A stretch of DNA of 64,000 nt, from the NCBI GenBank assembly GCA_964542755.1, contig CAZIWL010000001.1, forward strand, positions 48,234 to 112,233, written 5' to 3'. Every line of letters begins with the position of its first letter. Position 1 is the first letter of the stretch. Source of the stretch: an uncultured Anaerolineales bacterium. Lineage in GTDB: Bacteria; Chloroflexota; Anaerolineae; B4-G1. Positions 47,432-64,000 of the stretch are shown here, piece by piece. A program made the position numbers and the translations under genes. The notes under the pieces are model-generated. The model saw only the letters and a program-made list of their open reading frames with translations. It was not told the DNA's origin and searched no databases.

Positions 47432-48058
47432 GTGAGCCCGATCAAGCTGCTGGGTATCTCTGGGAGCCCACGACGGGGGGCGACGGCCTACGCGGTCCAG
47501 GAAGCGCTGGCCTATGCCGAAACCCTTGGCGACGTGGAGACGGAGTTTGTCTCGGTGCGCGGCAAAGAGATCAAGTTCTGCATCCACTGCGACTACTGTG
47601 TGCGGAAGAAGGAGGGCTGCGTCTTCGAAGATGATGTCGCCAAGATGTATCCCAGCATGGAGGAGGCCGACGCGTGGGTCCTCGGCACTCCTGTCTATCA
47701 GGGAACCATGTCGGGACAGCTGAAAGCTGTCCTTGATCGTTGTCGAGCCATTGTCGCCAGGGACATCGACGCGCTCAAGGACAAAGTTGGGGTGGGGATA
47801 GCCACGGGTGGCGATCGAGTTGGGGGCCAGGAGCCGGCCATCACGGCCATCCACGCCTTCTACCTGGCGAACAAGATGATCCCCATCAGTGGAGGGCCAT
47901 TCGGCGCAAATCTGGGCGGCACCATCTGGTCGCGCGACAAGAAGGGTGCGGGTGCCGAGGCTGACGAGGTCGGGATGGAGAGCGTCCGGCGGTCAGTCAA
48001 TCGTCTTGTTGAGGTGACCTCGACGATCAAGGGCTCGAAGTTGCATGACGATTCTTGA
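47432..48058 (+). CDS. NADPH-dependent FMN reductase / iron-sulfur flavoprotein-like
   Basis: Flavodoxin-like fold LLGISGSPRRG and a Cys cluster CIHCDYC. Confidence 0.7.
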   Translation: MSPIKLLGISGSPRRGATAYAVQEALAYAETLGDVETEFVSVRGKEIKFCIHCDYCVRKKEGCVFEDDVAKMYPSMEEADAWVLGTPVYQGTMSGQLKAVLDRCRAIVARDIDALKDKVGVGIATGGDRVGGQEPAITAIHAFYLANKMIPISGGPFGANLGGTIWSRDKKGAGAEADEVGMESVRRSVNRLVEVTSTIKGSKLHDDS

Positions 48059-48083
48059 CAGATGCCATCGTACAGTGTATAAT
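48055..48083 (+). promoter_or_regulatory. perfect consensus sigma70 promoter TTGACA-17-TATAAT (leader A)
   Basis: Exact hexamers with a 17-nt spacer; the -35 overlaps the TGA stop of the reductase gene. Confidence 0.6.
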
Positions 48084-48089
48084 AGAAAG

Positions 48090-48195
48090 CATAATTAGAA
48101 TAATCTGAGCTACCCTACGGATGGGATTGTGAAGCTGCCAAATATCCGTCACGACGCAGCTTAACTGCCGAATCATTTATGATTCGGCGTTTTTG
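48090..48195 (+). ncRNA. candidate structured leader or sRNA A of about 105 nt (conserved motif plus terminator), unclassified
   Basis: Predicted TSS, a motif GCTACCCTACGGATGGGATTGTGAAGCTGCC at 48109..48139 that is shared with leader B, and a terminator. Confidence 0.5.
48167..48194 (+). terminator. intrinsic terminator GCCGAATCA-TTTA-TGATTCGGC plus GTTTTT
   Basis: 9-bp perfect stem, 4-nt loop, U-tract. Confidence 0.8.
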
Positions 48196-48795
48196 GTCTT
48201 AGGGGCCAACCGGTCCGCCTAGGGGGCCAGCCTAGTAGCACATCTTCCACAACCGGGGCACCACGCGCCCCGCCGCGATAGAAGGTCAGCTCGTACCAGA
48301 ATCGTGGTACAGTCTGCTTGAGAGTTGATGCCGTTACGATGCTGTTGAGCCGTAGCCAGCAACTTGCCTTCCGGGTATATTGTCGATGCCAAAAAGGCGA
48401 TCTCGCGCTTTCTTGAGTCATTGGTGGGCTTCACCCGCAATAGGCTTCGTTTCGGCGCGATCGACCCGAAACCCGTTCTGTGACGCCGTGGCCAGTGGGG
48501 CCGTGAGGCCTACTCTCTAAACGCCGTCTATGCTCATACGAGTACTGGATGACCATCGGCTGTTCTTGTTGCACACCGTTAGCGGTCTACCGGCCTTCTC
48601 TGGCAATCGCCTGATCGCGCGCACCAACCTCTCTCAAGGTAGACGATACATTTACCGGCGGGGGGCTGTGCATCGCTGCGGGGTCCGGCAGAAGAAAGGG
48701 GGTGACGACTGAACCATTAGCCTGGATGTTGTATGCGTCTCCTACAGATAGGACAACACAGACGGATAGATCAGATTCCAAGGAGGAATACTCAG

Positions 48796-50328
48796 ATGTC
48801 GTTGTACGAGAAGATGGTGAACGAGGCCGTTGGCGCCGCAAAGTCGGTTCTTGGCGTCATAAGGGAGAAGCGTGGCGGGACCTTCAAGATCGCCGACGCA
48901 AAGCCATACGTCGATGCCGTCAACGCGATGGAGCCCGGTGACGGGCAGTCCAAAGAGGTCTTCGACCTGCACGTCGAGTCGGTGAATACCCACTACAACA
49001 CATTGATGGAGCTCACCGACACCATTCGCCCCGAAGACGACCCCTTCGTCGAGCACTACCAGACTCCGCCCATCCTGGAGATCCTCTACGAGGAGGACTC
49101 AGAGTTCAAGGACTCGATGTGGCAGTTCATCGACGCGGTCGCCGAGAACAAGTCCTTGATTGGGCTCGATGCGGTTCGTCGCTACGGCGGCATGTACGGC
49201 ATGACCTGTGTGGTCGACTTTGCCTTCTCTGTCGGATCGGTACCCAATACAGTCAACCGTATCCTCCGGGAGATGGACATTCCGAAGGAGCACAAGCAGA
49301 CAATCCTGGCTTCGAAGTCATGGGGGATGAACACCTCATACGGCTTTGGCGCAGCTTTCCGGGGGGCACTCGAGTCCGGCAAGACGGCAGCCGAGGCAGA
49401 GCAGGCCGAGGTTGACCAGATTCAGCACATCTACCGCGACCCGGTGGAGGCCCAGGCTGAACTGATGGACACCCACAACCTGGGTGGGCACGGTGGACAT
49501 ACCTCGTTCGACACCCGCAAGTACATGGCCCAGTACAAGGAGGCCATGCGACCTCACGTGGTGGCTGCTATGGAGGCGGGCGTGCATCCTGCCAACATCA
49601 CAGCCGTGCCCGCCTACTGCGTGGGTGACATTGGTCATCACATCGCCCAGTCCGCGTACAATATGTTCAAGGACGACATGTCCTTCGGCATCTACGAAGC
49701 AGTGATGGGCGTCTTCGAGAATACCATGCGCCGTGGCGTCGAGCAGGACGCCTATGGCAGCGAGTGGGACGTTCTGGCCGTGGCGACTGGTGCGCCCGCC
49801 TGTGCCGCCGCGTACATCCTCTGGCTGGACAGCTTCACTGTCCCCATGGTGATCGATCTGTTCAACAAACGGTTCCACAACTACTGCTCGATGCACCCGG
49901 ACCGCGGTGAGGCGGACGAGCTGCACAATGTCGACACCATCGACATCCTGATGCGCGGTGAGTCGATCCTAGAGCCGAAGCCGCGTGGTGCCGGTCGCAA
50001 GGTCAAGGGCATCGAGGTCGATCTCAGCCCGGTTGAAAACCACGAGGTCGTCATGAATCCGCAGCGTTACACCTATCCGGCGTGCGCCATCACCCAGCGC
50101 TTTGCGGCGTTGATGCATATGGCTGACTTCCCGTGCTACATGACGCCCGAGTGCGTAACGGCCACGTTGATGACCAATGCCGTGGCGCTCAATCCGGACC
50201 GCCCCGGCGCCCCGGTCAGGGGATGCAAGGACTGCGCTATCTGCACGCTGAACAAGCGCAACGCGCCTATGGCGACGGGCCGTCTGACGGGTGATCAGGG
50301 TTATTGCGAGTGGCACCTGGCGGTCTAG
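48796..50328 (+). CDS. uncharacterised 510-aa protein, paralogous to the 609-aa protein at 51767; C-terminal Cys-rich segment
   Basis: RBS AAGGAGG. A shared segment AAMEAGVHPANITAVPAY matches [19 protein letters not shown] in the paralog. No known family recognised. Confidence 0.75.
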   Translation: MSLYEKMVNEAVGAAKSVLGVIREKRGGTFKIADAKPYVDAVNAMEPGDGQSKEVFDLHVESVNTHYNTLMELTDTIRPEDDPFVEHYQTPPILEILYEEDSEFKDSMWQFIDAVAENKSLIGLDAVRRYGGMYGMTCVVDFAFSVGSVPNTVNRILREMDIPKEHKQTILASKSWGMNTSYGFGAAFRGALESGKTAAEAEQAEVDQIQHIYRDPVEAQAELMDTHNLGGHGGHTSFDTRKYMAQYKEAMRPHVVAAMEAGVHPANITAVPAYCVGDIGHHIAQSAYNMFKDDMSFGIYEAVMGVFENTMRRGVEQDAYGSEWDVLAVATGAPACAAAYILWLDSFTVPMVIDLFNKRFHNYCSMHPDRGEADELHNVDTIDILMRGESILEPKPRGAGRKVKGIEVDLSPVENHEVVMNPQRYTYPACAITQRFAALMHMADFPCYMTPECVTATLMTNAVALNPDRPGAPVRGCKDCAICTLNKRNAPMATGRLTGDQGYCEWHLAV

Positions 50329-50666: not shown

Positions 50667-50777
50667 GGCCGCGCTGGATAGATCCGGTGGGACACCGCCA
50701 CGAGAGCCAAGTGAAGCGCCGGTGATCGACCATGGGGCTCGTCGGTCGAGTTGTCTCGTCCTTATCAGGGAGCTAGC

Positions 50778-51344
50778 ATGTCCGAAAAGGTGAAGGTGGC
50801 GTGGGGAATCACGGGCGCCGGAGACTACCTCAGAGAGTCCCTGGACGCAATGAGAGACCTGACGCGGGACTTCGGCGTCGAGGTTACCGTTCTGCTCTCC
50901 ACGAACGGGGAGCTGGTGGTGAAATGGTACGATCTGTGGGATGACCTGAATGCGAGTTTCGACAAGGTTAGGTCAGAAAAGGGCCCCAACCTGCCGTTCT
51001 TGGCGGGGCCTCTTCAACTCGGCCATTATGCCTTCCTCTTTGTGTCGCCGGCGACAGGGAACACTGTGGCGAAGATCGCGTATGGAATAGCGGACAGCCT
51101 TGTCACCAACTGTGTCGCGCAGACGGTCAAGGGGGGCACGCCAGTCTTTGTCTATCCGGTTGATCAGGTGGCGGGCAGCCAGGAGACGGAAGGCCCTCGC
51201 GGGGAGAGAATCACCATCAGCACCAGACAGATCGATCTGGACAACGTCGAGAAACTCAAGGCCATGCCCGGCGTTGAGGTTCTGGGGCATCCGGGCCAGA
51301 TAAGCTCGGTAGTGAAGGACACGCTGTTTTCCGAGGTGTCCTGA
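50778..51344 (+). CDS. flavoprotein of the HFCD family (UbiX/PPCDC/AfpA-like)
   Basis: VAWGITGAGDY flavin-binding start and a ..PATGNTVAKIAYGIADSLVT.. motif; start at the internal ATG with RBS AGGGAG. Confidence 0.7.
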   Translation: MSEKVKVAWGITGAGDYLRESLDAMRDLTRDFGVEVTVLLSTNGELVVKWYDLWDDLNASFDKVRSEKGPNLPFLAGPLQLGHYAFLFVSPATGNTVAKIAYGIADSLVTNCVAQTVKGGTPVFVYPVDQVAGSQETEGPRGERITISTRQIDLDNVEKLKAMPGVEVLGHPGQISSVVKDTLFSEVS

Positions 51345-51421: not shown

Positions 51422-51450
51422 TTGACATAGTCTGCCTGCTTGTGTATAAT
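51422..51450 (+). promoter_or_regulatory. perfect consensus sigma70 promoter TTGACA-17-TATAAT (leader B)
   Basis: Exact hexamers; shares the GTGTATAATAG context with promoter A. Confidence 0.6.
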
Positions 51451-51456
51451 AGCTGA

Positions 51457-51637
51457 CACAAATCGTTTCGAGCCAGCTGAGTGCCGCATCTATCTTCACA
51501 GTCGTTGGCTTCCAACCGAATATCGCGAACCCGCGAATGGTGCTACCCTGCGGATGGGACTGCGAGGTTGTGAATGATCTGCCCTAGTACAACCGAGCTG
51601 CCGAGACTTTGGTCTCTGTGCAGCTCGGTTCTTTTTT
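51457..51637 (+). ncRNA. candidate structured leader or sRNA B (conserved motif plus terminator), paralog of A
   Basis: Motif GCTACCCTGCGGATGGGACTGCGAGGTTG at 51542..51570; a GGTTGT/ACAACC hairpin; a terminator; and 130 nt to the GTG start of the 609-aa gene. Confidence 0.5.
51593..51637 (+). terminator. intrinsic terminator CCGAGCTGC...GCAGCTCGG plus TTCTTTTTTT
   Basis: 9-bp outer stem plus 5-bp inner stem, with a long U-tract. Confidence 0.8.
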
Positions 51638-51766
51638 TGGGAGGTGATACCAGGACATACAGGTGGTCGTGGGGCGTTCGGCAGATAGAAGGATCGTTGT
51701 TGACGAGCATCCCTCGCTATGAGGGATCTTGGGGGCCACATATTCAGACTATCAGGAGGTACTGAC

Positions 51767-53548
51767 GTGGAGAAGGAAATCCTTGCAACAATCGCAGCTA
51801 TGACGTCCAACATCGAGTACACGACGAGTGACCGGATCGAGGCGCTTACCAAAGGTCACGGCATGCTCAACATCGCGGCACTCTGCGCAGAGAACGCGAT
51901 GACGTGGGAGGTCCTCCAGGGGCGAGATATCTCCCTGACGGATGCGAATATAGAGAAACTCCCGCTGGATCACGTCATTGAGGCTGGGGTCAACGCCGCC
52001 ATGGAGGCGGGCGCTTTCCCGGCCAACGCCGCTGTGATTACGGCGACGCTGCTCCTCATCGCCGGCACCTCCCCCCGCGCAGGTGTTCCCGCCGGCAACC
52101 GAAAGCTCGGCGCTCTGGCACGCATGAAGGCTGGAGCGGGCCGGACCGGCGTGGTGTCGATTCCGACATCGAAGCTTACCAACAAGCTCTCTGGCTTCGC
52201 GGCCGTCCAGGGCCTCTATAACGCCATGATGGACGGTAATGTGGTCCGCATCGACGGCGCCCACGTCCCCGCGTTCGTCGCCGGCGGCGCGCCTATGGGT
52301 CACAGTGTCCTCGGCGAGGATATGGTCTACCCGGACATCTGCCTGAAGGGTGGTAAGGCTGCCGTTGACGCCATGATGAAAGCCTACCGGGGGGCCGGCA
52401 TCAGTCCCAGCCCGATCCAGTGCGCTATCCTGGCCGCCGCTGCCGTTCTCGAGGTTGTCAACCCCGATGGTATGATCGGCGCTGAGTACGGCGACTTCTT
52501 CGTGCAGGGGACCGGGTACCTGGCCGGCAAGGGTGCTGCCGACGCCGCCGGTCTCCCCGAGAAGCTGCACTTGCGGGGCACGGGCGACGAGTACGACACG
52601 GCGAGTCTGGTTGGCGGAATGGGTATGATCCTCAAGGATGTCGGAGCCCCCTCGGTGATCGGCATGATGACGGTCAATGAGATCCTGGCCGCCTTCGCTG
52701 AAGGTCCGATGATCGGCGCCGGCTTCGGTGGCGGTCCGGTCAACCCCCCGTTGGCTCACCTGGCTGCCGACGGCGTCATCGCGATGAAGGCCCTGATGAA
52801 CAACAAGGGCGACGTTGAGGCCGCGGCCGATATGCTTCACGAAGTCAAGATGACCCAGTGGATCGACCCCGAGATTGCCGCTTTCTCCACAAACACCATC
52901 ACCCGGAAGGCGGAGCAGGTCCGCCGTGGTCCTGTGACCGAGACGATCATCAAGGCCACCGACGGGATCCGGACCAACGCTCTGCACCGCCGCGCCAAGT
53001 TCGCTTACGACCAGCTGAACGAGGGTAAGGACCTGAAAGAGATCTGCGGTGCGCTCGACCAGGCACGCAAGGCGCGGGTGGAGGAGAACGCCGGCAAGAT
53101 CCTCAGCGGCTTCTTCGGCAAGGACATCACCATCACATTCGACAAGCTCGAGGGTGGTGCCCGCCGCGACCATCCCTTCGCACAGGCCTTCTGGGGCTTC
53201 GACGCTGACATCGATGCGACGGTCACCGTCGACGGCGAGGTATTCGAGTTCGAGGGCCTCAGCCACACGGTCATCCCGGACGCTGTCTTGAATCAGAAGT
53301 CCGAGCTGTCGTTGCCGATCACGGTCGCTGCCGCGGTGGCCCAGGAGCTGATGTACGTGGGCTGCTGCACGATCGACGCCGTGGTCCCCGCTGTGGTGGC
53401 TGCCGCTATGGGTACGTACACCTGGAAGGACGCCGGTAAGAAGGCTGAGAAGGGCGCCAATATCACCTGCTCCATCCCTGGAGCGAAGAACACGGCCCGC
53501 GAGGCTGCCCGGCTGGCAATTCGGATCTTGCAGGACCTGGAGGGCTAG
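51767..53548 (+). CDS. uncharacterised 593-aa Gly/Ala-rich protein, paralog of 48796..50328
   Basis: GTG start with AGGAGG 7 nt upstream. Head of a run of overlapping genes to the window end. The 666-aa antisense ORF is rejected. Confidence 0.7.
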
Positions 53549-53650: not shown

Positions 53651-54169
53651 ATGCTGATTCTGGTAAATGTAGATGACGTCCCGGGCGAACTCCTCCCACA
53701 CGTCATCAGCGGTCTGATGGCGCGTGGAGCCGAGAACGTCCACGCCGTTCAATCGATTACCAAGAAGGGGCGGCTGGGCTATATGATCTTCGTCGACGCA
53801 CCATCCGAGAAGCTGAACGAGCTCGGCGGATTCCTCGCGTCCGAGGTAGGAACGATCGGCATGCGGGTGCTTGAGTCACGTCACGTTTGTTTCGACTATC
53901 GGGTGCGGAGCATGCGCCTGACGGCGGGCGAAGCCAGCGGGCAAACCCAAGCCATCATTCGCGTGAAGGAGGTCTACGACGACGAGCGGGTCGTTTCGGT
54001 CAAAGCTGAGTACGAGGACTTGCGGTCCGCCCTTGACCGATTTGAGGGTTCGGGTGTGAACACCTCGCTCGTTGCACTCAAGCGCCTTGTGGAAGAGGCG
54101 GCGTTGGGCCAGGCTCAGATAGATCATTCGGGCATTCGGATCGAGAGGGTTAGGGAGGTTTCCACGTGA
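53651..54169 (+). CDS. standalone LarC C-terminal-domain-like protein (DUF111 family, nucleotide-binding half)
   Basis: LILVNVDDVPGE...TKKGRLG...EVGTIGMRV matches the LETNIDDMSGE...MKKNRPG...TTTLGVR pattern of the nickel-pincer cofactor protein LarC. Confidence 0.55.
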   Translation: MLILVNVDDVPGELLPHVISGLMARGAENVHAVQSITKKGRLGYMIFVDAPSEKLNELGGFLASEVGTIGMRVLESRHVCFDYRVRSMRLTAGEASGQTQAIIRVKEVYDDERVVSVKAEYEDLRSALDRFEGSGVNTSLVALKRLVEEAALGQAQIDHSGIRIERVREVST

Positions 54170-55026
54170 AGAAAATTCTGGTGCAACTCGACAACGACGA
54201 ATCCGCGAGCGTCTTCGATACGGTAGCGGCCTACGATTCTGGCGTTGACAGTGTCCTCCAATATGCCAGTGTGGCACCGGAGGACGTGCAGAACCTGGTC
54301 TACGGGGCGATTTTCACTCGTGGACCGCAGGACTTGAAGAATTCCGCCGTGTTCATCGGGGGATCGGATGTCGCGGTTGGAGAGAAGATGCTGAAGATCG
54401 CTCAAGATTCCTTCATCGGGCCTCTGAAGGTCTCGGTGATGCTCGATGCCAACGGCTGCAATACTACAGCCGCTGCAGCCGTCGCTAAGATGCTCTCGTC
54501 GGCAGACCTCTCGGGGGAAAAAGTGGTCGTTCTGGCGGGAACGGGTCCCGTTGGGATACGGGCTGCAGCTCTCTTCGCCCAGGAGGGCGCGGAGGTTACA
54601 CTGACGTCACGGGATCAAGCGCGAGCGGAGGAGGCTGCGGCTTCCGTCAGCGCCCGGTTTGATGTGAAGGTTGCGGGTGTGGCAGCTGCGGAAGAAGAGG
54701 ACCTTCGTGCAGCCCTTGAGGGGGCACGCGGAGTACTCTCAGCCGGTGCCGCTGGTGTTACCCTGCTGCCGGAATCGGTCTGGATTGAGCACCCAACCCT
54801 TCAAGTGCTTGGCGACGTGAATGCGGTTCCACCCTTGGGCATAGAAGGCATCAAAGTCCACTGGAAGGCCAAGGAGAAGCATGGCAAGATCATCTACGGT
54901 GCCATCGGTATAGGCGACTTCAAGATGAAGGTCCATCATGCCAGTGTTGCTCGCCTCTTCGAGCAGAACGACTTGGTCCTGGATGCCGAAGAGGTGTACG
55001 CGACAGCGAAAGAACTGTCGAGCTAG
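54166..55026 (+). CDS. mtdA: NAD(P)-dependent methylene-tetrahydromethanopterin/tetrahydrofolate dehydrogenase
   Basis: GTGA overlap with the upstream gene and RBS AGGGAGG. About 286 aa. Motifs FDTVAAYD, DANGCNTTAAAAV and VVLAGTGPVG resemble Methylobacterium MtdA. Confidence 0.75.
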   Translation: MKKILVQLDNDESASVFDTVAAYDSGVDSVLQYASVAPEDVQNLVYGAIFTRGPQDLKNSAVFIGGSDVAVGEKMLKIAQDSFIGPLKVSVMLDANGCNTTAAAAVAKMLSSADLSGEKVVVLAGTGPVGIRAAALFAQEGAEVTLTSRDQARAEEAAASVSARFDVKVAGVAAAEEEDLRAALEGARGVLSAGAAGVTLLPESVWIEHPTLQVLGDVNAVPPLGIEGIKVHWKAKEKHGKIIYGAIGIGDFKMKVHHASVARLFEQNDLVLDAEEVYATAKELSS

Positions 55027-56210
55027 TGCGCGTTCTCATCGTCGGCCTTAGCACTCGAGCGATCGCCCAGTCCGCGTACGAGGCCGGCCATGACATCGTG
55101 ACGCTCGACTACTTTGGAGACAGCGACCAGCGAGCTCTCGTAGAGAACCACTCCCTGCTCCGCGACTACGATCTGGCATACGGCCCTGAAGCGTTGGTCC
55201 GGGTAGGCCGGGAGCTGGATGCTCAAGCCGTCGTCTACACCGCGGGCTTGGAGAATGATCCTTGGGCGGTTGCGGACCTGGCGGAGGGCCGAACACTTCT
55301 CGGAAACGAGCCCGATGTCCTCTGCCAGGTCCGCAACTGGGATGTCCTACGGGGATTCTTCCGGGACGCAGGGATCGGCTTTGCAGAGACACTTCTGCCG
55401 GGCGAGGAAGGATTGGCAGAGCACTGTGAGCGCTGGGTTCGCAAGCCGGTTCGGAGCGGAGGCGGTCGCGACGTTGACTACTGGGACGGCAGCGCGCTAG
55501 CCTGTCATCAGATTCTGCAGGCCTACGTCGATGGCGTTCCGGCGTCAGCTGCCTTTGTCGCCGACGGCGAGGATAGCCTCGTTATCGGCGTGACCGAGCA
55601 GTTGATCGGGCGTGAGGAGCTGGGAGCCGCCGGTTTCGCCTGGTGCGGCAATATGGTACCCTTGGAGCTTGCAAAGGCTGACCGGGAGATTGTGTGGCAC
55701 GACATCGCCACTGCCGTCTCGCGCTTGACGAAGCACTTCGGCCTACGGGGAGTGAACGGTGTGGACTTCGTCCTTCACCGGTGTGCTGATGGGCGTCCGC
55801 AGCCGGTTGTCGTGGAGGTTAACCCTCGCTACACGGCCTCGATGGAGCTTTTCGAATCGGCGTACGACGAGAGCATTTTCTCTCTCCACGTTGAGGCTGT
55901 GAAGGGTCATCTGCCAACCAGCCAGGATCAAGCACGCTGGAAACGGACGGATGGTTACCTCGGCAAGGCAATCGTCTTCGCAAAGCGGCCCGTGACCATG
56001 CCCGACACCGGGGGCTGGTTTGGCCTGGGCAGGCACGACGTGCCGCATACTGGGGAGCGGATAGAGGCCGGACATCCCGTATGCACGGTGTTCGCGCGGG
56101 GTGACGGACGTCGTGGTTGTTGGAGCGGTCTCCTGGAGGCGGCTGAAAGTGTACGTCGCGAAATTGGAGACCAGATTGGAGGAGTGACTTGGACGCAACG
56201 TTCAAGCTAG
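55026..56210 (+). CDS. ATP-grasp ligase (MptN- or MfnD-like, H4MPT or methanofuran biosynthesis)
   Basis: ATP-grasp fold in a C1-cofactor context; GTG start overlapping the mtdA stop. Confidence 0.55.
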   Translation: MRVLIVGLSTRAIAQSAYEAGHDIVTLDYFGDSDQRALVENHSLLRDYDLAYGPEALVRVGRELDAQAVVYTAGLENDPWAVADLAEGRTLLGNEPDVLCQVRNWDVLRGFFRDAGIGFAETLLPGEEGLAEHCERWVRKPVRSGGGRDVDYWDGSALACHQILQAYVDGVPASAAFVADGEDSLVIGVTEQLIGREELGAAGFAWCGNMVPLELAKADREIVWHDIATAVSRLTKHFGLRGVNGVDFVLHRCADGRPQPVVVEVNPRYTASMELFESAYDESIFSLHVEAVKGHLPTSQDQARWKRTDGYLGKAIVFAKRPVTMPDTGGWFGLGRHDVPHTGERIEAGHPVCTVFARGDGRRGCWSGLLEAAESVRREIGDQIGGVTWTQRSS

Positions 56211-56551
56211 TAACTGGGCGAACGCGCAGCCAGGCTGATGGGCTGCACAAAGGCAAGGGCACCGAAGCCTATCGACAGGCGACGGAACGCGTGGAGATGA
56301 ATCAGGGCGACATGGGTGCCTTGGGCCTCAACGAGGGGTCTACCGTGCATCTACGGACGGATGCTGGGAGCGTCGATGTGATGGTTTACCAGGGCGAGCT
56401 CCCGTCCGGTCTCCTGTTCATGCCGCTGGGTCCTGCGGCAAACCGTCTCATCGGCGTCGAGACGGACGCCACGGGCACCCCCCGCTACAAGGATCTTCCT
56501 GTCATCGTAGAGCGGTCGGTCCGGGAAGGAGAAGCGGCAAGCGATGGCTAA
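56189..56551 (+). CDS. formylmethanofuran dehydrogenase subunit D-like protein (small beta-barrel subunit)
   Basis: TTG start with GGAGGAG RBS; KLVTGRT..Q N-terminus typical of FwdD/FmdD. Confidence 0.65.
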   Translation: MDATFKLVTGRTRSQADGLHKGKGTEAYRQATERVEMNQGDMGALGLNEGSTVHLRTDAGSVDVMVYQGELPSGLLFMPLGPAANRLIGVETDATGTPRYKDLPVIVERSVREGEAASDG

Positions 56552-57818
56552 GGTAGTGGAGAACGCCGTCTGCACGTTCTGCGGTTGTCTATGTGACGAC
56601 ATCACTGTGGAGGTCGAGGGCAACGCCGTAAGCCAGGTCCGTCGCACGTGCGCCAATGGCCGAGGCGTCTTCATGCACTACGACCCTGCGCCCCGACAGC
56701 CAACTGTCCGCGGCGAGGAGGTCACCTGGGGCGAGGCAGTCGAGGAGGCGGCGACAATCCTCTCGGAGGCCCATAGTCCCCTGATCTATGGGCTCAGTTC
56801 GACGGCTAGCGAAGCCCAGCGGAAGTGCGTTGCGCTGGCCGACTACCTGGGCGCCGTGATCGACACAACGTCTTCGGTCTGTCACGGCCCTACCGGACTG
56901 GCGATGCAGGCCGTGGGTGAACCCACTTGCACCCTGGGCGAGGTGCGGAACCGCGCAGACCTGCTCGTCTTCTGGGGCTGCAATCCGGCGGCCGCCCACA
57001 TGCGCCACTTCAACCGGTACTCGGTTACCGCCCGCGGGCGACTTACACCGAACGGGAAGAGGGACCGGACGACCGTGGTGGTCGATGTCCGCCCGACGGC
57101 CAGCACGCGGATAGCCGATCAGTTCCTCCAAGTTGAGCTTGGAAGTGACTTTGAGGTGCTGACTACCCTGTTGGCCTTCGTCCAGGGCAAGGGGGACAGG
57201 CTCACGGCGGAGGAGGTCGGTGGAGTGCCCATGGCGGAGCTGGAAGCACTGGCCGAGCACATGATGAGCTGCCGGTTCGGGGTGGCCTTCATGGGTATGG
57301 GGTTGACCCACACCCCGGGCCAGGACTTGACCGTGAGCGAGTTGTTCAAGCTGGTTGCAGCCCTGAACGACCACACCCGATTCTCCGTGATTCCGATGCG
57401 CGGACATGGCAATGTCGCCGGTGCGGACCAGGTGATGAGCTGGCAGTGCGGTTATCCGTTTGCGGTCAATTTCGCCCGAGGGTATCCGGTTTATGGGCCC
57501 GGGGAGTTCACGGCGGTCGACGTGCTCGCCCGCCAGGAGGCGGACGCCGCTTTGATTCTGGCCTCTGATCCCGTTGCCCATTTCCCACGCAGGGCGGCTG
57601 ATGAATTGGGGAAGATACCGGTCGTGGTCCTAGACCCGATGCCGAGTCTGACGACTGAGATAGCCTCGGTTGTCTTCCCCACGGCGTGCTACGGGGTAGA
57701 GGCGAAGGGTACGGCCTACCGCATGGACGGCGTACCCATTCAGCTACGGGCGGTGCTGCCGACCACCCGTCCGACCGATGAGGAGATCCTGGATCAGATT
57801 ACTGAGGCGGTGAGATGA
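56544..57818 (+). CDS. fhcB: formyltransferase/hydrolase complex subunit B (FwdB homolog)
   Basis: CTFCGCLCDD N-terminal motif and a molybdopterin-oxidoreductase-like fold. Confidence 0.8.
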   Translation: MAKVVENAVCTFCGCLCDDITVEVEGNAVSQVRRTCANGRGVFMHYDPAPRQPTVRGEEVTWGEAVEEAATILSEAHSPLIYGLSSTASEAQRKCVALADYLGAVIDTTSSVCHGPTGLAMQAVGEPTCTLGEVRNRADLLVFWGCNPAAAHMRHFNRYSVTARGRLTPNGKRDRTTVVVDVRPTASTRIADQFLQVELGSDFEVLTTLLAFVQGKGDRLTAEEVGGVPMAELEALAEHMMSCRFGVAFMGMGLTHTPGQDLTVSELFKLVAALNDHTRFSVIPMRGHGNVAGADQVMSWQCGYPFAVNFARGYPVYGPGEFTAVDVLARQEADAALILASDPVAHFPRRAADELGKIPVVVLDPMPSLTTEIASVVFPTACYGVEAKGTAYRMDGVPIQLRAVLPTTRPTDEEILDQITEAVR

Positions 57819-59455
57819 TGTTGGGGATTTTGAACGGGCGCGTTTACGATCCGATCCACGAGGTTGATGGGGAGGTGCAGGATGTGTGGATGGACGACGG
57901 GAAAATCGTCCCTCCCCCCGCAACCGAGGAGGCGAGACGCCAGGCCAGGACCATCGACGCTACAGGCCTCGTCGTTATGGCCGGAGGCGTGGACGTTCAC
58001 AGCCACATCGCGGGCGCCAAGGTCAATGCCGGCCGAAAGTTCCGGCCGGAGGACCACCGCGACCACGTCCGCGCGCGCACCCCTCTGACGCGCTCTGGCG
58101 CGGGCTACACCACACCGACCACGGCGATGATGGGCTACCTCTACGCCGAGATGGGTTACACGACCGTGATGGAGGCCGCGACGGCCCCACTGGTGGCGCG
58201 TCACACTCATGAGGAGCTGGAGGACATACCGATTCTGGACACCGGGGCCTATATCACCATGGGCAACAATCACTTCATCATGGAGTCCATACGCCGCGGG
58301 GAACGGGAGAAGGCTAGGGACTACGTGGCATGGCTGTTGCGGGCGACGAAGGGATATGCGATCAAGATCGTCAATCCCGGCGGTGTCGAGAACTGGAAGT
58401 GGCGCGGCAACGTCAAGGAACTGGACGACGAGGTGATTGGTTTCGAGGTCACCCCGCGTCAGATTCTGGAGACGCTCGCCTGGGTCAACGATGAGCTAGG
58501 CCTGCCGCACGTCCCGCATATCCACGGCCTCAATCTGGGGCAGGGTGGCAACGCCCGCACGACGGTCGAGACGATCAGGGCCCTCGACGGGCGCCCGTGC
58601 CACTTCTGCCATCTGCAGTTTTTGAGCTATGAGGGAGAACCCGATACGTTGCCCCGCTCGGGGGCGGTACAGGTGGCTCAAGCGGTCAACGAGCATAGGA
58701 ACGTTACGATCGACGTGGGACAGGTCGTCTTTGGTTCTGCCACCACAATGACGTCCGACGGCCCTCTCCAGTACCATCTCCACCGGCTCACGGGGGACAA
58801 GTGGCTCAACGATGATGTGGAGGCCGAGACCGGCGGTGGCCTCGTGCCAATGGAGTACGCGCCGAGGAACGCCGCCAACGCAACCCAGTGGGCCACAGGC
58901 CTGGAGTTGTTCCTGCTCATTGATGATCCCTGGCGGGTCTTCCTGACCACCGATCATCCCAACGCCGGTCCTTTCTTCCGTTATCCTTACGTCATCAAGC
59001 TGCTCATGGATCGTCAGGCACGCGCAGAAGCTTTCGAAGAGATCAGCCCCAGGGTCCGGAAGCGCTCGACTCTCGGGCAGCTGGAGCGAGAGTATTCGCT
59101 CTATGAGATCGCCATCATTACTCGGGCTGGTACTGCGCGCGCCCTGGGTCTGGACAACAAGGGGCACCTGGGCGTCGGTGCGGACGCTGATGTGGCTGTC
59201 TATGTCGACTTGGATGATCGGGAGGAGATGTTTGCGTCGCCGCGGTACGTGATCAAGGATGGGGAGATCGTCGTCCAGGATGGCAAGGTGGTGCGCGAGC
59301 AGCAGGGCCGAACCCTCTACGTTGAGCCTGCGTACGATCGCGGCATAGAGAAAGAGCTGCGGGATTACTTCCGGGACTACTACACCATCCAGTTCGATAA
59401 CTACCCGGTGTCACCTGACTATGTGCCCCGCGGGGAGGTCGTCGCGTGTCGCTAG
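57815..59455 (+). CDS. fhcA: formyltransferase/hydrolase complex subunit A (FwdA homolog, amidohydrolase)
   Basis: ATGA overlap; amidohydrolase metal motifs GGVDVHSHI...HIHGLNLGQGG. Confidence 0.8.
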   Translation: MMLGILNGRVYDPIHEVDGEVQDVWMDDGKIVPPPATEEARRQARTIDATGLVVMAGGVDVHSHIAGAKVNAGRKFRPEDHRDHVRARTPLTRSGAGYTTPTTAMMGYLYAEMGYTTVMEAATAPLVARHTHEELEDIPILDTGAYITMGNNHFIMESIRRGEREKARDYVAWLLRATKGYAIKIVNPGGVENWKWRGNVKELDDEVIGFEVTPRQILETLAWVNDELGLPHVPHIHGLNLGQGGNARTTVETIRALDGRPCHFCHLQFLSYEGEPDTLPRSGAVQVAQAVNEHRNVTIDVGQVVFGSATTMTSDGPLQYHLHRLTGDKWLNDDVEAETGGGLVPMEYAPRNAANATQWATGLELFLLIDDPWRVFLTTDHPNAGPFFRYPYVIKLLMDRQARAEAFEEISPRVRKRSTLGQLEREYSLYEIAIITRAGTARALGLDNKGHLGVGADADVAVYVDLDDREEMFASPRYVIKDGEIVVQDGKVVREQQGRTLYVEPAYDRGIEKELRDYFRDYYTIQFDNYPVSPDYVPRGEVVACR

Positions 59456-59491
59456 ATAACCAGGGGGTCGCGAGTGTGCTGGTGAGCACGG

Positions 59492-60862
59492 ATGCGAGGG
59501 CCGGCGGTTTCCGGCCGAGGCGTCGTGGCTGATTACCTCTTCGTCACAGGCAAGCTGGCCGCCGACGCGCTCCGGGATACGTTGGAGGGAATGGAGCCGG
59601 GATTCGACTATCGGATCGAGGAGCTTCCCCTCTCCGTGGCAGCCCTGATGCACGCCGGCTGGATCGCCCGGCACCTGGATGGAGCCCGTGGGTGCGACAA
59701 GGTCATGCTCAGCGGCTGGGTGCAGGGCGACCTTGCGGTGATCGAGGAGAAGGTCGGCGTCCCGGTGATCCTGGGCCCCAAGGACCTCAAGGATATTCCC
59801 GTTTTCTTCGGCGGCGAGCGCGTGCTTCCAGGGTACGGCGAATATGATGTGCAGATCCTGGCCGAGATCGTCGAGGCCTACCAGATGTCGTGGGAGGATG
59901 TCCTGGCCCGGGCCGAGTACTTCCGGGACAGCGGCGCGGATGTCATCGACCTGGGCTGCCCGGTGGGGATGGATGAGGGATTCCCCGGTGTGGGCGGGGT
60001 CGTCCGTCAGCTGAAGGCGCACGGTTTCACGGTCAGTCTGGACACCTTTCACCACGAGACCATCCGCCGCGCTGATGAGGCCGGGCTTGATATGCTCCTC
60101 AGCGTGAATAGCACAAACATGCATCTGGTGCCGGAGCTGGACTGCCGAGTGGTCGTCATACCGGATTTCGACCAGGGTTTGGAATCGCTCGAGCGCAATA
60201 TTGCCCAGCTTGAGGCTTGGGGCGTATCCTATATCATCGATCCCATCGTCAATCCCATCAATTTCGGCTTTGCCGAGTGCTTGCAGCGGTTCTACGAGAC
60301 ACGTCGACGCCACCCGGATGCCGAGATGCTAATGGGGGTGGCGAATCTCGTGGAGCTGACCGACGCCGACAGCACGGGCGTCAACGCTGTCATGGCTGGT
60401 TTTGTCCAGGAGCTGGGTATCGACTACGTCCTGATGACCGAGGTGATCAGCTGGGCGCGGGGCGCCGTCCGCGAGTTCGACCTGGCGCGGAAGCTGATGC
60501 ATTACGCCGCCCGGAACAACGTGCTGCCCAAGCACGTGGACGATGGCCTGATCACGGTCAAGGACCCGCCCTATGAGCCCTATACGGAGCCCGAGCTCCG
60601 GGTCATGCAGAAGCGGGTGCGCGACAAGAACCTCCGAATCTTCGTGACCGAGGACGCCATATGCATTTTCGACCGCTCCCGATTCGTTCAGGGCACCGAT
60701 CCGCAGGCACTCTTCGACCAACTGGAGATTCGGGACGGAGGGCACGGTTTCTACGTCGGCCGTGAACTCGAGCGGGCGGCCCTGGCGCTCCGACTTGGCA
60801 AGAAGTACACCCAGGAGATGCCCCTACGGTGGGGCTACCTCTCCGACGGCTGGGGTGAATGA
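59492..60862 (+). CDS. dihydropteroate-synthase-like protein of H4MPT biosynthesis (archaeal MJ0301-type)
   Basis: Pterin-binding TIM-barrel-like core (DVIDLGC, GFTVSLDTFH) plus a C-terminal extension. Start is uncertain; GTG alternatives lie downstream. Confidence 0.6.
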   Translation: MRGPAVSGRGVVADYLFVTGKLAADALRDTLEGMEPGFDYRIEELPLSVAALMHAGWIARHLDGARGCDKVMLSGWVQGDLAVIEEKVGVPVILGPKDLKDIPVFFGGERVLPGYGEYDVQILAEIVEAYQMSWEDVLARAEYFRDSGADVIDLGCPVGMDEGFPGVGGVVRQLKAHGFTVSLDTFHHETIRRADEAGLDMLLSVNSTNMHLVPELDCRVVVIPDFDQGLESLERNIAQLEAWGVSYIIDPIVNPINFGFAECLQRFYETRRRHPDAEMLMGVANLVELTDADSTGVNAVMAGFVQELGIDYVLMTEVISWARGAVREFDLARKLMHYAARNNVLPKHVDDGLITVKDPPYEPYTEPELRVMQKRVRDKNLRIFVTEDAICIFDRSRFVQGTDPQALFDQLEIRDGGHGFYVGRELERAALALRLGKKYTQEMPLRWGYLSDGWGE

Positions 60863-61422
60863 TCATCGAGACCTTGTTCGCAACGTTTAGCGACGCGGGA
60901 GAGCCCAACTTCGCACCAATGGGTGTGGTGTGGGGAGAGGACGAGGTGACCGTGCGGCCCTTTCGCGATACTACCACGTACCGAAACCTCGTCAGCACCT
61001 CGTGCGGCGTGGCGAATCTCACCGACGATGTCCTGCTCTTTGCCCAAGCCGCGCTCGAGGACGTCGAGCCTCCCTGGCGTCCCGCTTCTCACGTCAGAGG
61101 CGCCGTGCTCCGCAGTGCATGCGCGTGGAGAGAGCTGGAGGTCATCGATGAGAGAGGCCAGGGCACGCGGGCAGACATCAGATGCCGTGTCGTGGGGCGA
61201 GGGAACCAGCGCGAGTTCGTGGGTTTCAGTCGAGCGCGGAGCGCCGTGATCGAGGCAGCCATCCTCGCTACTAGACTCCATCTGTACCCACGGAAGGACG
61301 TTGAAGGGGCCCTCGAGCGGTATGATGATGTCGTAGCCAAGACTGGCGGGGAACGAGAACACGAGGCTATGCGGTATCTGCAGAGTTACGTGACAAGGTG
61401 GTACGGTGAGAATAAGGATTGA
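60859..61422 (+). CDS. DUF447-family protein (H4MPT-linked)
   Basis: Overlapping start; size and context match the DUF447 proteins found in methylotroph H4MPT clusters. Confidence 0.5.
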   Translation: MIIETLFATFSDAGEPNFAPMGVVWGEDEVTVRPFRDTTTYRNLVSTSCGVANLTDDVLLFAQAALEDVEPPWRPASHVRGAVLRSACAWRELEVIDERGQGTRADIRCRVVGRGNQREFVGFSRARSAVIEAAILATRLHLYPRKDVEGALERYDDVVAKTGGEREHEAMRYLQSYVTRWYGENKD

Positions 61423-62374
61423 GACTGCAGCCCGTCTACACATGGGCTTCTTGGACATGCACGGGGGCCTTGGGCGCCGTTTCGGTAGCCTGGGTGTGGG
61501 GCTGGAAAAGCCTCGACTAGTCCTCGAGGCAGCACCTGCGCCAGAGTTGACCTGTGAGGGACCCGGCGCCGAAGCCGCTCTAGAGTTCGCAGAGTGCTAC
61601 TGCCAGGCTTTCTTGTCCTGTGGAGGTGAAGTACCTGTCAAAGCGCACATACGAATCGTGGAGATGATTCCTCGCCACGTCGGCCTTGGGTCGGGCACGC
61701 AGTTGGCGCTGGCCGTGGGAACTGCCCTGGCCCGGCTCGGCGGCATCGAAGCCGGGGTGAGCAACCTTGCCCTGGCGATGGGTCGTGGACGCCGCTCCCG
61801 CGTGGGGATCGGTTCCTTTGAGGCTGGCGGCTTCATGGTGGATGGGGGAAGGCGTGTGGGCGAAGAGGCGCTTCCGCCCATCCTCCTGCGCCGCGCTTTG
61901 CCCCGTGATTGGCGCTTCGTCGTTGTCACGCCGGAGGTGGAACCCGGCCTATGCGGTGAGCACGAGGATCAGGCCTTCGATGAGTTGGCTCGACCCTCTG
62001 AGGAGCGCGCCGGTCGGATCGCCCGTCTCCTGGTGATGAGTATGCTCCCCGCACTGGTCGAGAACGACATTGAAAGCTTCGGGGCTGCCCTGACGGATAT
62101 CCAGCGGCTGGTCGGGGATAGCTTCTCGCCTGTTCAAGGCGGCCGCTACGCGAATCGGGTGTCGGGTAGACTCATAGATGATCTCCTCGCACTGGGGGCT
62201 GTGGGGGCCGGTCAGAGCTCCTGGGGCCCAACGGTCTATGGCCTGGTGCGCGGAGAGAACGCGGCACGCACTCTGAAGCAGGAGTTGGAGAGGGGGTCGG
62301 ACGGGAAGCAGTTGACGATCCATATTAGCGGGGCCTCTGAACGCGGAGCGCGCGTGACCGAGCTTCTGCGCTGA
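61406..62374 (+). CDS. mptG: beta-ribofuranosylaminobenzene 5'-phosphate synthase (GHMP-kinase fold)
   Basis: GTG start; GHMP motif IPRHVGLGSGTQLALAVGTAL; H4MPT biosynthesis context. Confidence 0.7.
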   Translation: MRIRIETAARLHMGFLDMHGGLGRRFGSLGVGLEKPRLVLEAAPAPELTCEGPGAEAALEFAECYCQAFLSCGGEVPVKAHIRIVEMIPRHVGLGSGTQLALAVGTALARLGGIEAGVSNLALAMGRGRRSRVGIGSFEAGGFMVDGGRRVGEEALPPILLRRALPRDWRFVVVTPEVEPGLCGEHEDQAFDELARPSEERAGRIARLLVMSMLPALVENDIESFGAALTDIQRLVGDSFSPVQGGRYANRVSGRLIDDLLALGAVGAGQSSWGPTVYGLVRGENAARTLKQELERGSDGKQLTIHISGASERGARVTELLR

Positions 62375-62452
62375 TAGTACTCATCGTGTATGGTGTGCCC
62401 GTCGAGTTCAATGGGCAAAGAGGCCGTAGACTGGGATTGGAGATGGAGTAGG

Positions 62453-63346
62453 ATGTACGTGAACGACGTCGAGATCATAGATACTTTTGCCGAGGCCTTC
62501 GACATGTGGGGGGCTCGACTCATCGTCACGGCGGCCAACGAGAAGTGGGCGCGGATCGCTGGCGAGAATGCCACCGGATTCGCCACGTCCGTCATCGCCT
62601 GTGGCGCCGAGGCCGGCATCGAGCGGTCGGTCCCGGCGGCGGAGACTCCAGATGGTCGGCCCGGAGTGAGTCTTCTCGTCTTCACGATGGGACCGAAGGG
62701 TATGAAGAAGCAGCTGATGGGACGGGTAGGTCAGTCCATCATGACCTGCGCGACAACAGCCTGTTTCGATGGGCTGGAGGATGGTCAGAAGACGGTGGAG
62801 GTCGGCGGCGACCTGCGCTACTTTGGAGACGGGTATCAGATCAGCAAGCTCCTCGAGGGGCGTCGGCTGTGGCGCATCCCCGTCATGGAGGGTGAGTTTG
62901 TCGTCGACGAGAGCTTCAATATCCAGCAGAGCGTCGGGGGCGGCAACTTCCTCATCCTAGGCGAGAACCCAGCGGTTACACTGGAAGCGGCCGAGGCAGC
63001 TGTGGAGGCTATCGCGGATATCCCTGGTGTCGTGATGCCCTTCCCGGGTGGCATCGTGCGCAGCGGGAGCAAGACGACGTCGAAGTACTCGTTCCTGCGC
63101 GCCTCCACCAACAGCCCCTACTGCCCTGTGCTCCGCGGGCAGGTGGAAACTGCCCTCCCGGAGGGCGTCAACTCGGTGTTGGAGATTGTGATCGACGGAC
63201 TGAGCGAGCGGGACATTGCGCGGGCGACTGCTGTGGGCATCCGGGCCGCGTGCCGGCCCGGGGTCAGTCGCATCACGGCTGGGAACTACGGCGGCACTTT
63301 GGGCCGCTACCAGTTCCATCTACACGACGTTCTCAACCGCTGGTAG
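62453..63346 (+). CDS. ftr: formylmethanofuran:tetrahydromethanopterin formyltransferase (Ftr/FhcD)
   Basis: MYVNDVEIIDTFAEAFDMWGARLIVTA closely matches the Ftr N-terminus. Confidence 0.85.
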   Translation: MYVNDVEIIDTFAEAFDMWGARLIVTAANEKWARIAGENATGFATSVIACGAEAGIERSVPAAETPDGRPGVSLLVFTMGPKGMKKQLMGRVGQSIMTCATTACFDGLEDGQKTVEVGGDLRYFGDGYQISKLLEGRRLWRIPVMEGEFVVDESFNIQQSVGGGNFLILGENPAVTLEAAEAAVEAIADIPGVVMPFPGGIVRSGSKTTSKYSFLRASTNSPYCPVLRGQVETALPEGVNSVLEIVIDGLSERDIARATAVGIRAACRPGVSRITAGNYGGTLGRYQFHLHDVLNRW

Positions 63347-63461
63347 ATGGGCGGTCGATTCTGGGCCCGTTGCCCCGGGCAGACCGCGATTCAGGTTTCG
63401 TCCGCCCTCTCTAGTCCGGGGGCGCTGGCACGGGCCGTCGTGAGCAGCAAGGAGAGCAGCT

Positions 63462-64000
63462 TTGTTTTCAGGTACTGAAGATAGTCACGAGACGCGCAAG
63501 ACGGCGACGACACTCACGCGTCGGGAGTCGACGACGATCCCCATTGAGGCCGATGCCATCTCTCCCGATCACTTTGTCGGTCTCGAGCTTGCGGAGATCG
63601 AACGCCTGCCGCTCTGGTATGGGCGACGCAAGGTACCCTTGGGCGAGCTCTTCTCAGTCGAGCTCGGCGACCCCAACGATATCCATATCCAGGGTGACCT
63701 TGATCACGTGAAGCGCGTCGGCCAGAACATGAGCCATGGTCGGATCACAGTGCACGGAGATGTTGGGATGCACCTGGGCGCCGGGATGACCGGGGGCCAG
63801 ATCGTCGTCCAGGGCAACGTCGGCGCTCGGGCAGGAGCCCACATGATCGATGGCTCGATCTGGATCCATGGGGATGCCGGGCCGATGTTGGGAGGGGCAT
63901 ACGCCGGCGAGAAACTGGGCATGAAAGGCGGCGTCATCATTGTGGATGGGGATGCGGGCTCCAGGGCTGCCGAGAGGATGCGGCGGGGCATCATCGTGGT
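63462..64000 (+). CDS. fhcC: FwdC/FhcC-like subunit (GXGXG beta-helix repeats); 3' truncated by the window edge
   Basis: TTG start with AAGGAG 7 nt upstream; repeats GDVGMHLGAGMTGGQIVVQGNVGARAG...GDAGPMLGGAY. The ORF runs off the end of the window. Confidence 0.7.
   Translation, partial: MFSGTEDSHETRKTATTLTRRESTTIPIEADAISPDHFVGLELAEIERLPLWYGRRKVPLGELFSVELGDPNDIHIQGDLDHVKRVGQNMSHGRITVHGDVGMHLGAGMTGGQIVVQGNVGARAGAHMIDGSIWIHGDAGPMLGGAYAGEKLGMKGGVIIVDGDAGSRAAERMRRGIIV

Follow-up and report, generated by a model that had tools for sequence, protein, structure and literature searches.

An archaeal-type formylmethanofuran dehydrogenase operon predicted in an Anaerolineae bacterium, headed by the undescribed p609 family and a candidate regulatory leader RNA

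Genes for tetrahydromethanopterin (H4MPT)- and methanofuran-linked one-carbon (C1) metabolism lie at the end of a 64-kb stretch of DNA from an uncultured Anaerolineales bacterium (contig CAZIWL010000001.1; the whole stretch is called the window below). They raise the question of which enzyme handles formyl-methanofuran in this organism: a redox-active formylmethanofuran dehydrogenase (Fwd) of the archaeal kind, or the formyltransferase/hydrolase complex (Fhc) known from methylotrophs. The initial annotation of positions 53651-64000 described a formaldehyde-oxidation and cofactor-biosynthesis module in a Chloroflexi-like genome and labeled two of the subunits FhcB and FhcA. Profile searches recovered all of the genes it named, on the + strand and in the positions given for them, and the locus does encode H4MPT/methanofuran C1 metabolism together with cofactor biosynthesis, with several of its proteins passing curated models and matching solved structures. 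The two Fhc labels did not survive comparison with those structures, and the operon probably serves to interconvert H4MPT-bound C1 units and CO2 by means of a four-subunit FwdABCD enzyme.

Redox-type features of the FwdB and FwdA subunits

The distinction between Fwd and Fhc was applied as defined by Hemmann et al. (2019; PMC6926001), who found that FhcB has lost the [4Fe-4S] domain, the residues Cys118, His119 and Arg288, and the separate FwdD subunit; classification was based on curated models, matches in the Protein Data Bank (PDB) and motif states. When the B subunit of the window was compared with all PDB chains, it matched 8RJA_B (E = 3e-129) and 5T5I_B, the FwdB of M. wolfeii (E = 6e-125), over its full length, and scored 420-434 bits against FwdB structures, whereas the match to FhcB of Methylorubrum extorquens (6S6Y_B) reached only 47.7 bits (E = 9e-12). 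With the M. wolfeii protein it shares 47.6% identity across 418 positions. Cysteines 10, 13, 17 and 36 (Cys10/Cys13/Cys17/Cys36) align with the [4Fe-4S] cluster cysteines of FwdB structures, the catalytic Cys113-His114 pair lies in an SVCHGP motif that aligns with SVCHGP of 5T5I_B (Cys118-His119), and the active-site Arg286, equivalent to Arg288 in M. wolfeii, is found in a conserved PMRGH motif. The initial annotation had recognized no molybdopterin version of FwdB and had drawn attention to a Cys in the string CTFCGCLCDD. Cysteine is indeed present there, but the string is the [4Fe-4S] motif and the catalytic residue sits in SVCHGP; the protein is a bona fide FwdB with the cluster cysteines, Cys-His pair and arginine, and it is accompanied by FwdD. 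The A subunit likewise scored higher against archaeal 5T5I_A (523 bits) than against FhcA 6S6Y_A (388 bits), and the motifs containing its His62/His64, Lys184, His235/237, His266 and Asp380 align with those of 9SW6_I; the dimetal ligands of FwdA are HxH, a carboxylated Lys, His, His and Asp.

The core enzyme is predicted to be a redox-competent Mo/W-pterin formylmethanofuran dehydrogenase of the archaeal type, because its FwdB matches archaeal FwdB and keeps the iron-sulfur (FeS) cysteines, Cys113-His114 and Arg286, and because FwdD is present. An enzyme of the Fhc type would convert formyl-methanofuran to formate only, as in methylotrophs, with the B subunit as a redox-dead scaffold. This alternative draws on the gene order B-A-ftr-C, in which the placement of ftr among the genes of the complex resembles fhcBADC (PMC6926001), and on the NAD(P)-type methylene-H4MPT dehydrogenase (Mtd), which is of the bacterial methylotroph type. 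Retention of every feature that FhcB has lost and the wide gap in bit scores speak against it, as does the occurrence of both enzyme types side by side as distinct paralogs in gammaproteobacterial metagenome-assembled genomes (MAGs), and it is considered highly unlikely.

The separation of the two types extends to relatives of the locus. A scan with the formyltransferase Ftr, limited to one genome per species, yielded 330 relatives; a table of 80 loci was assembled, and the loci retrieved supplied 74 homologs of the B subunit for comparison. These homologs separate cleanly into an Fwd-type class (45-78% identity), nearly every member of which has the Cys-His motif, and an Fhc-type class (23-30% identity), which does not have the motif. 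Throughout the 80-locus table, FwdD is confined to loci with an Fwd-type FwdB, and none was found in Fhc-only loci. Two adjacent sets were observed in the gammaproteobacterial MAGs L033, L034, L051, L054, L057, L060, L065, L066 and L072, an Fwd-type set with FwdD and the Cys-His motif beside an Fhc-type set without the motif; thus, both types coexist in one genome.

Operon layout, partner enzymes and direction of the pathway

The interval 53651-64000 contains ten complete + strand open reading frames (ORFs) followed by an eleventh that is cut by the window end (Table 1). The ORFs from 53651 to 63346 are co-directional and mostly overlapping, and gene calls made independently on metagenome contigs identical to the window gave the same ORFs. 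Most starts had been thought to overlap by ATGA or GTGA; overlaps do occur at seven of nine junctions, although only three take the 4-nt form. The first ORF of the interval, which encodes a stand-alone protein of the LarC2 type, went unmentioned in the initial annotation; it is translationally coupled to mtdA via a GTGA overlap. The operon begins upstream of 53651, and its first gene encodes a protein designated p609. At the other end, contigs of the same strain, 99.8-99.9% identical to the window across 11.5 kb, extend beyond the window and carry fwdC, mch, a RimK/MptN-like ligase gene, a CitG-like gene, a gene for a 367-amino acid (aa) protein without assignment, larB and a full-length larC. 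The complete fwdC (286 aa) is present on one of these contigs (L120), and mch comes directly after fwdC on contigs that share 99.8% nucleotide identity with the window (TIGR03120, 396 bits versus a cut-off of 228.8). For ftr, the 318-aa ORF from 62390 has an over-extended start and for that reason had no exact database match; the 297-aa form was matched. In the closest reference MAG (L001, 10001-11722), Ftr and FwdC are read as a single 573-aa ORF; the two genes may be genuinely fused, or the ORF may stem from an error of assembly or a frameshift.

Table 1. Positions of features in the window, with the matches or properties on which their naming rests.
Feature	Coordinates	Strand	Evidence
Tandem array of PMT_2-type glycosyltransferases	10761..23602		at least 6 paralogs, 590-850 aa each
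T-box leader upstream of pheS/pheT	30290..30561		87.6 bits, Rfam gathering score 93; seen in permissive scan
Mevalonate kinase gene	42280..43224		TIGR00549, 252 bits
SelB (selenocysteine elongation factor) gene	45472..47412
Sigma-70-type promoter-like site, TTGACA-17-TATAAT	48055..48083	+	12/12 consensus matches; ahead of leader copy 1 and DUF2193 gene
Leader RNA copy 1: core, pseudoknot helices, intrinsic terminator	48094..48210	+	84 bits to covariance model R1
DUF2193 protein, 510 aa, C-terminal CxxCxxC...C motif	48796..50328	+	PF09959, 749 bits
AfpA-type flavoprotein, candidate dihydromethanopterin reductase (DmrB/DmrX-like)	50751..51344	+	TIGR02699, 208.9 bits versus cut-off 192.45
Second sigma-70-type promoter-like site, TTGACA-17-TATAAT	51422..51450	+	12/12; ahead of leader copy 2 and operon
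Leader RNA copy 2, pseudoknot and terminator, operon 5' untranslated region	51527..51651	+	106 bits; minimum free energy -41.8 kcal/mol, z = -3.2
p609, 593 aa, highly conserved, without family or fold match	51767..53548	+	first gene of the operon
Stand-alone LarC2-type domain protein, 172 aa	53651..54169	+	NF052512, 72.2 bits versus cut-off 50
MtdA-type NAD(P)-dependent methylene-H4MPT dehydrogenase	54166..55026	+	Mpt_N 110.8 bits; 268 bits to 1LU9, 6TGE, 6TLK
ATP-grasp ligase, weakly MfnD-like	55026..56210	+	ATP-grasp_3 81.6 bits; MfnD 20 bits, far under cut-off
FwdD, 120 aa, cap domain of Mo/W-pterin site	56189..56551	+	2KI8, 5T5I_D, 8RJA_D at E = 1e-16 to 1e-20
FwdB, predicted Mo/W-bis-pterin and [4Fe-4S] catalytic subunit	56544..57818	+	TIGR03129, 536 bits versus cut-off 328
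FwdA, binuclear-metal amidohydrolase subunit	57815..59455	+	TIGR03121, 750 bits versus 393
Dihydropteroate-synthase-like pterin enzyme, DUF6513 and Pterin_bind	59492..60862	+	TIGR00284, 183.7 bits, under cut-off 256.65
DUF447 flavin-reductase-like protein, standard H4MPT-cluster member	60859..61422	+	profile search
MptG, beta-ribofuranosylaminobenzene 5'-phosphate synthase family	61406..62374	+	TIGR00144, 168.5 bits versus 113.5
Ftr, formylmethanofuran:H4MPT formyltransferase, 297 aa	62453..63346	+	PF01913 and PF02741; TIGR03119, 426.8 bits versus 292.6
FwdC, N-terminal 179 codons, cut by window end	63462..64000	+	TIGR03122, 183 bits versus 131

Curated equivalog models were passed by FwdA, FwdB, FwdC and Ftr and by the Mch of the same-strain contig. 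MtdA, which contains Mpt_N and Rossmann domains, matched the solved MtdA of M. extorquens (1LU9) over its full length. These matches bear on the possibility that the genes are generic paralogs (an amidohydrolase, a formate-dehydrogenase-like protein, a GHMP kinase and a short-chain dehydrogenase/reductase) without methanofuran or H4MPT chemistry. Pfam alone does name several of them generically (Amidohydro_3, Molybdopterin, GHMP_kinases), but the matches to equivalog models and solved structures are specific and span the full length, and the co-occurrence of these genes with Ftr and Mch in a single operon is kept across phyla. The best matches did not fall in generic paralog families, the outcome that had been named beforehand as counting against the module, and this possibility can be regarded as negligible. 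In Anaerolineae operons, one of two divergent Mtd paralogs occupies the same position, with some loci encoding an Mtd 57-83% identical to the window MtdA (L008, L009, L017, L019, L023) and others a type that is 34-38% identical (L005, L006, L014, L016).

The cofactor-biosynthesis genes are assigned more loosely. The ATP-grasp ligase beside mtd is assigned as a putative methanofuran/methylofuran glutamate ligase of the OrfY/MyfA type, based on its weak MfnD-like similarity and its operon position. Family and context likewise suggest that the RimK-like gene is the counterpart of Orf5/MyfB or MptN (PMC8141765) and that the dihydropteroate-synthase-like enzyme acts in H4MPT biosynthesis. The AfpA-type gene adjoins the dihydropteroate-synthase-like gene in relatives, and Afp has been treated as a counterpart of DmrA (Chistoserdova, 2016; PMC5020050); the AfpA flavoprotein is of the type expected for dihydromethanopterin reductase and is a candidate for this function.

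In the pathway that these genes would form, MtdA would oxidize methylene-H4MPT to methenyl-H4MPT with NAD(P)+, Mch would open the ring to give formyl-H4MPT, and Ftr would transfer the formyl group to methanofuran. Within a four-subunit FwdABCD complex, the dimetal site of FwdA would hydrolyze formyl-methanofuran and the resulting formate would be oxidized to CO2 at a Mo- or W-bis-pterin site of FwdB/FwdD; this mechanism follows from known structures (5T5I) combined with residue conservation, whereas the cofactor loading is inferred. Electrons would exit via the single [4Fe-4S] cluster of FwdB toward a low-potential acceptor, and every step would be reversible. The H4MPT would be supplied by MptG, the dihydropteroate-synthase-like enzyme, DUF447 and AfpA, with glutamyl tails added by the ATP-grasp ligases. 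Transcription would probably start from the consensus promoter at 51422 and proceed through the terminator-containing leader RNA, followed by the genes for p609 and the LarC2-type protein.

Several observations weigh against this interpretation. The dihydropteroate-synthase-like protein, the ATP-grasp ligase and MptG in its equivalog model (NF040726, 183 bits versus a cut-off of 328) all score under curated cut-offs, and their exact reactions are therefore set by family and context only. The metal and cofactor content of the enzyme is not readable from sequence. Family scans of window ORFs, which covered the bulk of the 64 kb at ORFs of at least 150 aa, found neither the FwdF/FwdG polyferredoxin nor FwdE nor any other obvious electron partner, and none was seen when gene calls around related loci were inspected; FwdF and FwdG were also not found on the same-strain contig within 10 kb downstream. 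The FwdF/FwdG polyferredoxin is typical of hydrogenotrophic methanogens and is not universal. Some archaea have FwdDBAC sets from which E, F and G are missing (PMC7325909). The same scans of window ORFs detected no genes for Mo/W cofactor biosynthesis or transport, no fae or mer and no CODH/ACS (carbon monoxide dehydrogenase with acetyl-CoA synthase), and among gene calls in the 10 kb downstream there was likewise no fae, mer or CODH/ACS gene, nor one for a polyferredoxin or the Mo/W cofactor. For Fae in particular, no family match was found among the scanned window ORFs, which were of at least 150 aa for the bulk of the window, or in gene calls for the 10 kb downstream.

With fae, mer, CODH/ACS and Mo/W genes all missing from the 64-kb window, the window settles neither the substrate source nor the direction of the pathway. 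Oxidation of formaldehyde, proposed in the initial annotation, stands as one possible direction, but the enzyme set interconverts methylene-H4MPT and CO2 and formaldehyde oxidation is only one use of it, because FwdB is of the redox type and free formate is not an end product. A serious rival is that the same enzymes are mainly reductive and reduce CO2 with ferredoxin to formyl-methanofuran and then to methylene-H4MPT, so as to provide C1 supply or an electron sink in a fermentative anaerobe with an H4MPT-type methyl branch. In archaea, CO2 is fixed at the entry step by a redox-competent Fwd (PMC6926001), fae was not found nearby among the window ORFs scanned, and relatives occur in the anaerobes Halanaerobium, Syntrophaceticus and Ca. 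Hakubella, for which a CO/CO2-linked role was proposed (PMC7325909). Against the reductive direction, there is no mer, mtr or CODH/ACS in the window or 10 kb downstream, and no adjacent hydrogenase or bifurcating module for low-potential electrons. Sequence cannot decide direction, and the reductive role is considered possible but the less probable of the two uses of the pathway. Oxidation of C1 units to CO2 through FwdABCD is weakly favored as the physiological direction.

Host, distribution and relation to known systems

The best relative in the Ftr scan is 80% identical, and it and ~20 of the next 30 relatives are from Anaerolineae/Anaerolineales MAGs; the host is an Anaerolineae (Chloroflexota) bacterium, as the description of the genome as Chloroflexi-like had anticipated. 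The closest genome is an Anaerolineales MAG that shares the gene order of the window. This order (DUF2193, FMN reductase, AfpA, the 593-aa protein, LarC2, Mtd, ATP-grasp, FwdD, FwdB, FwdA) is seen on the Anaerolineales MAG contig CAYYTU010000001, and the operon is carried by ~25 Anaerolineae MAG species. The order Mtd, ATP-grasp, FwdD, FwdB, FwdA, cofactor genes, Ftr, FwdC, Mch, RimK-like and CitG-like is found in Anaerolineae, Acidobacteriota, Actinomycetota and Bacillota, with the core order within Bacillota present in Halanaerobium and Syntrophaceticus. In some Gammaproteobacteria, an fwdD-fwdB-fwdA-ftr-fwdC core has mtd, the ATP-grasp gene and mch on the opposite strand.

The host is less non-canonical for such a pathway than had been suggested. 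Chloroflexi were among the phyla listed with H4MPT/methanofuran genes in 2016, when fwdD was also noted to be retained in the gene sets of Firmicutes, Synergistetes and NC10 (Chistoserdova, 2016; PMC5020050), and an fwdDBA-ftr-fwdC operon encoding Cys118 and the FeS domain was described in Ca. Hakubella thermalkaliphila, a member of the Actinobacteria (Merino et al., 2020; PMC7325909). Both the operon type and the Chloroflexi H4MPT genes were already published, and the module is ordinary for its lineage.

Full-length homologs of A, B, C and D are present in the M. wolfeii FwdABCDFG complex (5T5I; also 8RJA, 9SFI and 7BKB), and the FwdB [4Fe-4S] cysteines, the equivalents of Cys118/His119/Arg288 and the FwdA HxH/Lys/Asp positions are shared with it. 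Unlike archaeal Fwd, the window enzyme is encoded in a bacterial host, its operon contains no FwdF/G or FwdE, ftr lies between fwdA and fwdC, and its partner is an NAD(P)-type MtdA as opposed to an F420-dependent Mtd or Hmd. The bacterial context and the gene order B-A-ftr(D)-C resemble those of Fhc from Methylorubrum extorquens (6S6Y), as does the company of mtdA, mch and genes for making H4MPT/methylofuran (ATP-grasp, RimK-like, CitG-like, DUF447, dihydropteroate-synthase-like and MptG), but the FeS domain, Cys, His, Arg and FwdD are present here and absent there (PMC6926001). The Ca. Hakubella locus (L028) has an identical core operon, with 56-62% identity for FwdB, FwdA and Ftr. It differs in that Hakubella was reported without the full H4MPT biosynthesis gene set found in the window operon (PMC7325909), and in that the latter is headed by a structured leader RNA and the p609/LarC2 pair and followed downstream by larB-larC.

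Other features of the window were once read together with the module. The T-box control to which the initial annotation referred exists, but it lies 23 kb away before pheS as an unrelated neighbor and scores under the Rfam gathering threshold, at which nothing in the window was reported. The array of PMT_2-type glycosyltransferases is also real and also an unrelated neighbor; it is flanked by two ORFs of similar size without a family match. Despite a selB gene 9 kb upstream, the window FwdB has Cys and not selenocysteine at its active site. A search of the window for tRNA and tmRNA genes found none, and hence there is no tRNA-Sec beside selB.

Leader RNA, DUF2193 and p609 at the operon head

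A leader RNA of ~100-120 nt is present in two copies in the window, each behind a perfect promoter-like site. Its core, GCUACCCUNCGGAUGGGA, occurs twice in the window compared with 0.01 copies expected by chance. A metagenome scan and the related loci provided 17 distinct full-length copies, a small and closely related sample, and all of those with enough downstream DNA precede a p609 or DUF2193 gene. Two crossing helices form an H-type pseudoknot, the helices being 99% and 96% paired and five pairs showing changes on both sides, and an intrinsic terminator 3' of the pseudoknot shares two nucleotides with the second helix. When the terminator is counted with the rest of the structure, 87% of cells are paired versus 28-45% in slid controls, and none of 500 shuffles was as good. 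A covariance model found further variants in Anaerolineales-type loci only, and no copies in Thermoleophilia, Bacillota or Halanaerobium loci; neither leader matched an Rfam 15 family at E <= 5. These features make the leader a candidate riboswitch or attenuator, graded as a candidate and not as proven because the sample of related sequences is small. On one metagenome contig (L086, 450-700, - strand), two tandem leader copies lie 131 nt apart, an arrangement that recalls tandem riboswitches.

The DUF2193 gene behind the first leader copy belongs to a family of Fe-S-binding proteins that has been studied in methanogens and whose function is unknown (PMC12375889). DUF2193 adjoins Fwd-type clusters in 14 of the 80 loci, from Chloroflexota and Bacillota (including L014, L021, L029, L030, L032, L035, L036, L039 and L041), and in that table it is never beside Fhc-only clusters, which suggests that its role is tied to Fwd or its cofactors.

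The p609 protein gave no Pfam, NCBIfam, PDB sequence or fold match. It has 694 homologs; the best 120 share 73-100% identity, and every one of them is annotated as hypothetical. Grouped at 50% identity, the family forms ~15 clusters of full-length proteins; it reaches down to 35% identity and has conserved Lys, His and acidic residues throughout, with Lys113, Lys136, Lys290, His179 and His268 among the conserved positions. A possible kinship between p609 and DUF2193, based on a 19-residue similarity (AAMEAGxxPAN), was rejected at a profile-profile alignment probability of 0.9%. In a Syntrophaceticus MAG (L042, 2-286), the LarC2-like gene is preceded by a gene whose match to p609 is confined to the C-terminal ~95 residues of the latter, at the edge of the locus; database proteins matching this stretch (P0121-P0123) are 109-158 aa long and may represent a stand-alone domain or truncated genes.

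The neighborhoods of p609 point toward nickel. LarC2 is the CTP-binding domain of the nickel-pincer cyclometallase, and the LarC2-type gene always follows p609. Four Anaerolineae loci have larE-larB-larC in the p609 cluster, the same-strain contig has larB-larC, and most loci without a visible p609 are also without lar genes; locus L017 has p609 with no lar genes within reach. In Thermoleophilia, a 75%-identical homolog lies between nikR-cbiQ-cbiO and larC2-larB-larC1-cbiM, without Fwd or H4MPT genes, such that p609 is tied to nickel-pincer cofactor and nickel-uptake genes in two phyla. In this cluster, p609 holds the place that the racemase LarA has in lar operons, and no LarA-family domain was called in p609 neighborhoods. 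New nickel-pincer enzymes without the LarA fold were recently found by the same logic of lar-gene neighborhoods, including the aldo-keto reductase-fold NphT (PMC13524815), and p609 has no sequence or fold similarity to either LarA or aldo-keto reductases. Based on the LarC2 pairing, the lar/nik/cbi neighborhoods and this precedent, we hypothesize that p609 may be a new enzyme that depends on the nickel-pincer cofactor, or else a protein that handles this cofactor; it could instead be a maturation factor. Both p609, with its link to nickel-cofactor genes, and the leader RNA were previously unreported, and a full-text literature search found no paper tying nickel-pincer chemistry to H4MPT metabolism. 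A fuller proposal, advanced tentatively and with less than even confidence, is that this undescribed family uses or helps to install the nickel-pincer nucleotide cofactor, that in Anaerolineae it would link the hydride chemistry of the nickel pincer with the H4MPT/methanofuran pathway, and that a new pseudoknot riboswitch-like leader would control p609 and DUF2193.

As a module, the operon is mainly a further Anaerolineae case of a gene set that is already known to be widespread in bacteria. The corrected assignment matters in that these bacteria would keep a redox-active, archaeal-type CO2/formyl-methanofuran enzyme and not a methylotroph hydrolase. Anaerolineae are abundant in anoxic sediments, and Fwd-type identity bears on the evolution of the H4MPT branch and on C1 and CO2 fluxes in such sediments. 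The more valuable leads are found at the operon head, in the duplicated leader RNA, which offers a handle on the signal controlling the pathway, and in p609, a directly testable candidate for a new fold which, if the nickel-pincer proposal is true, could feed or drain methylene- or methyl-level C1 units.

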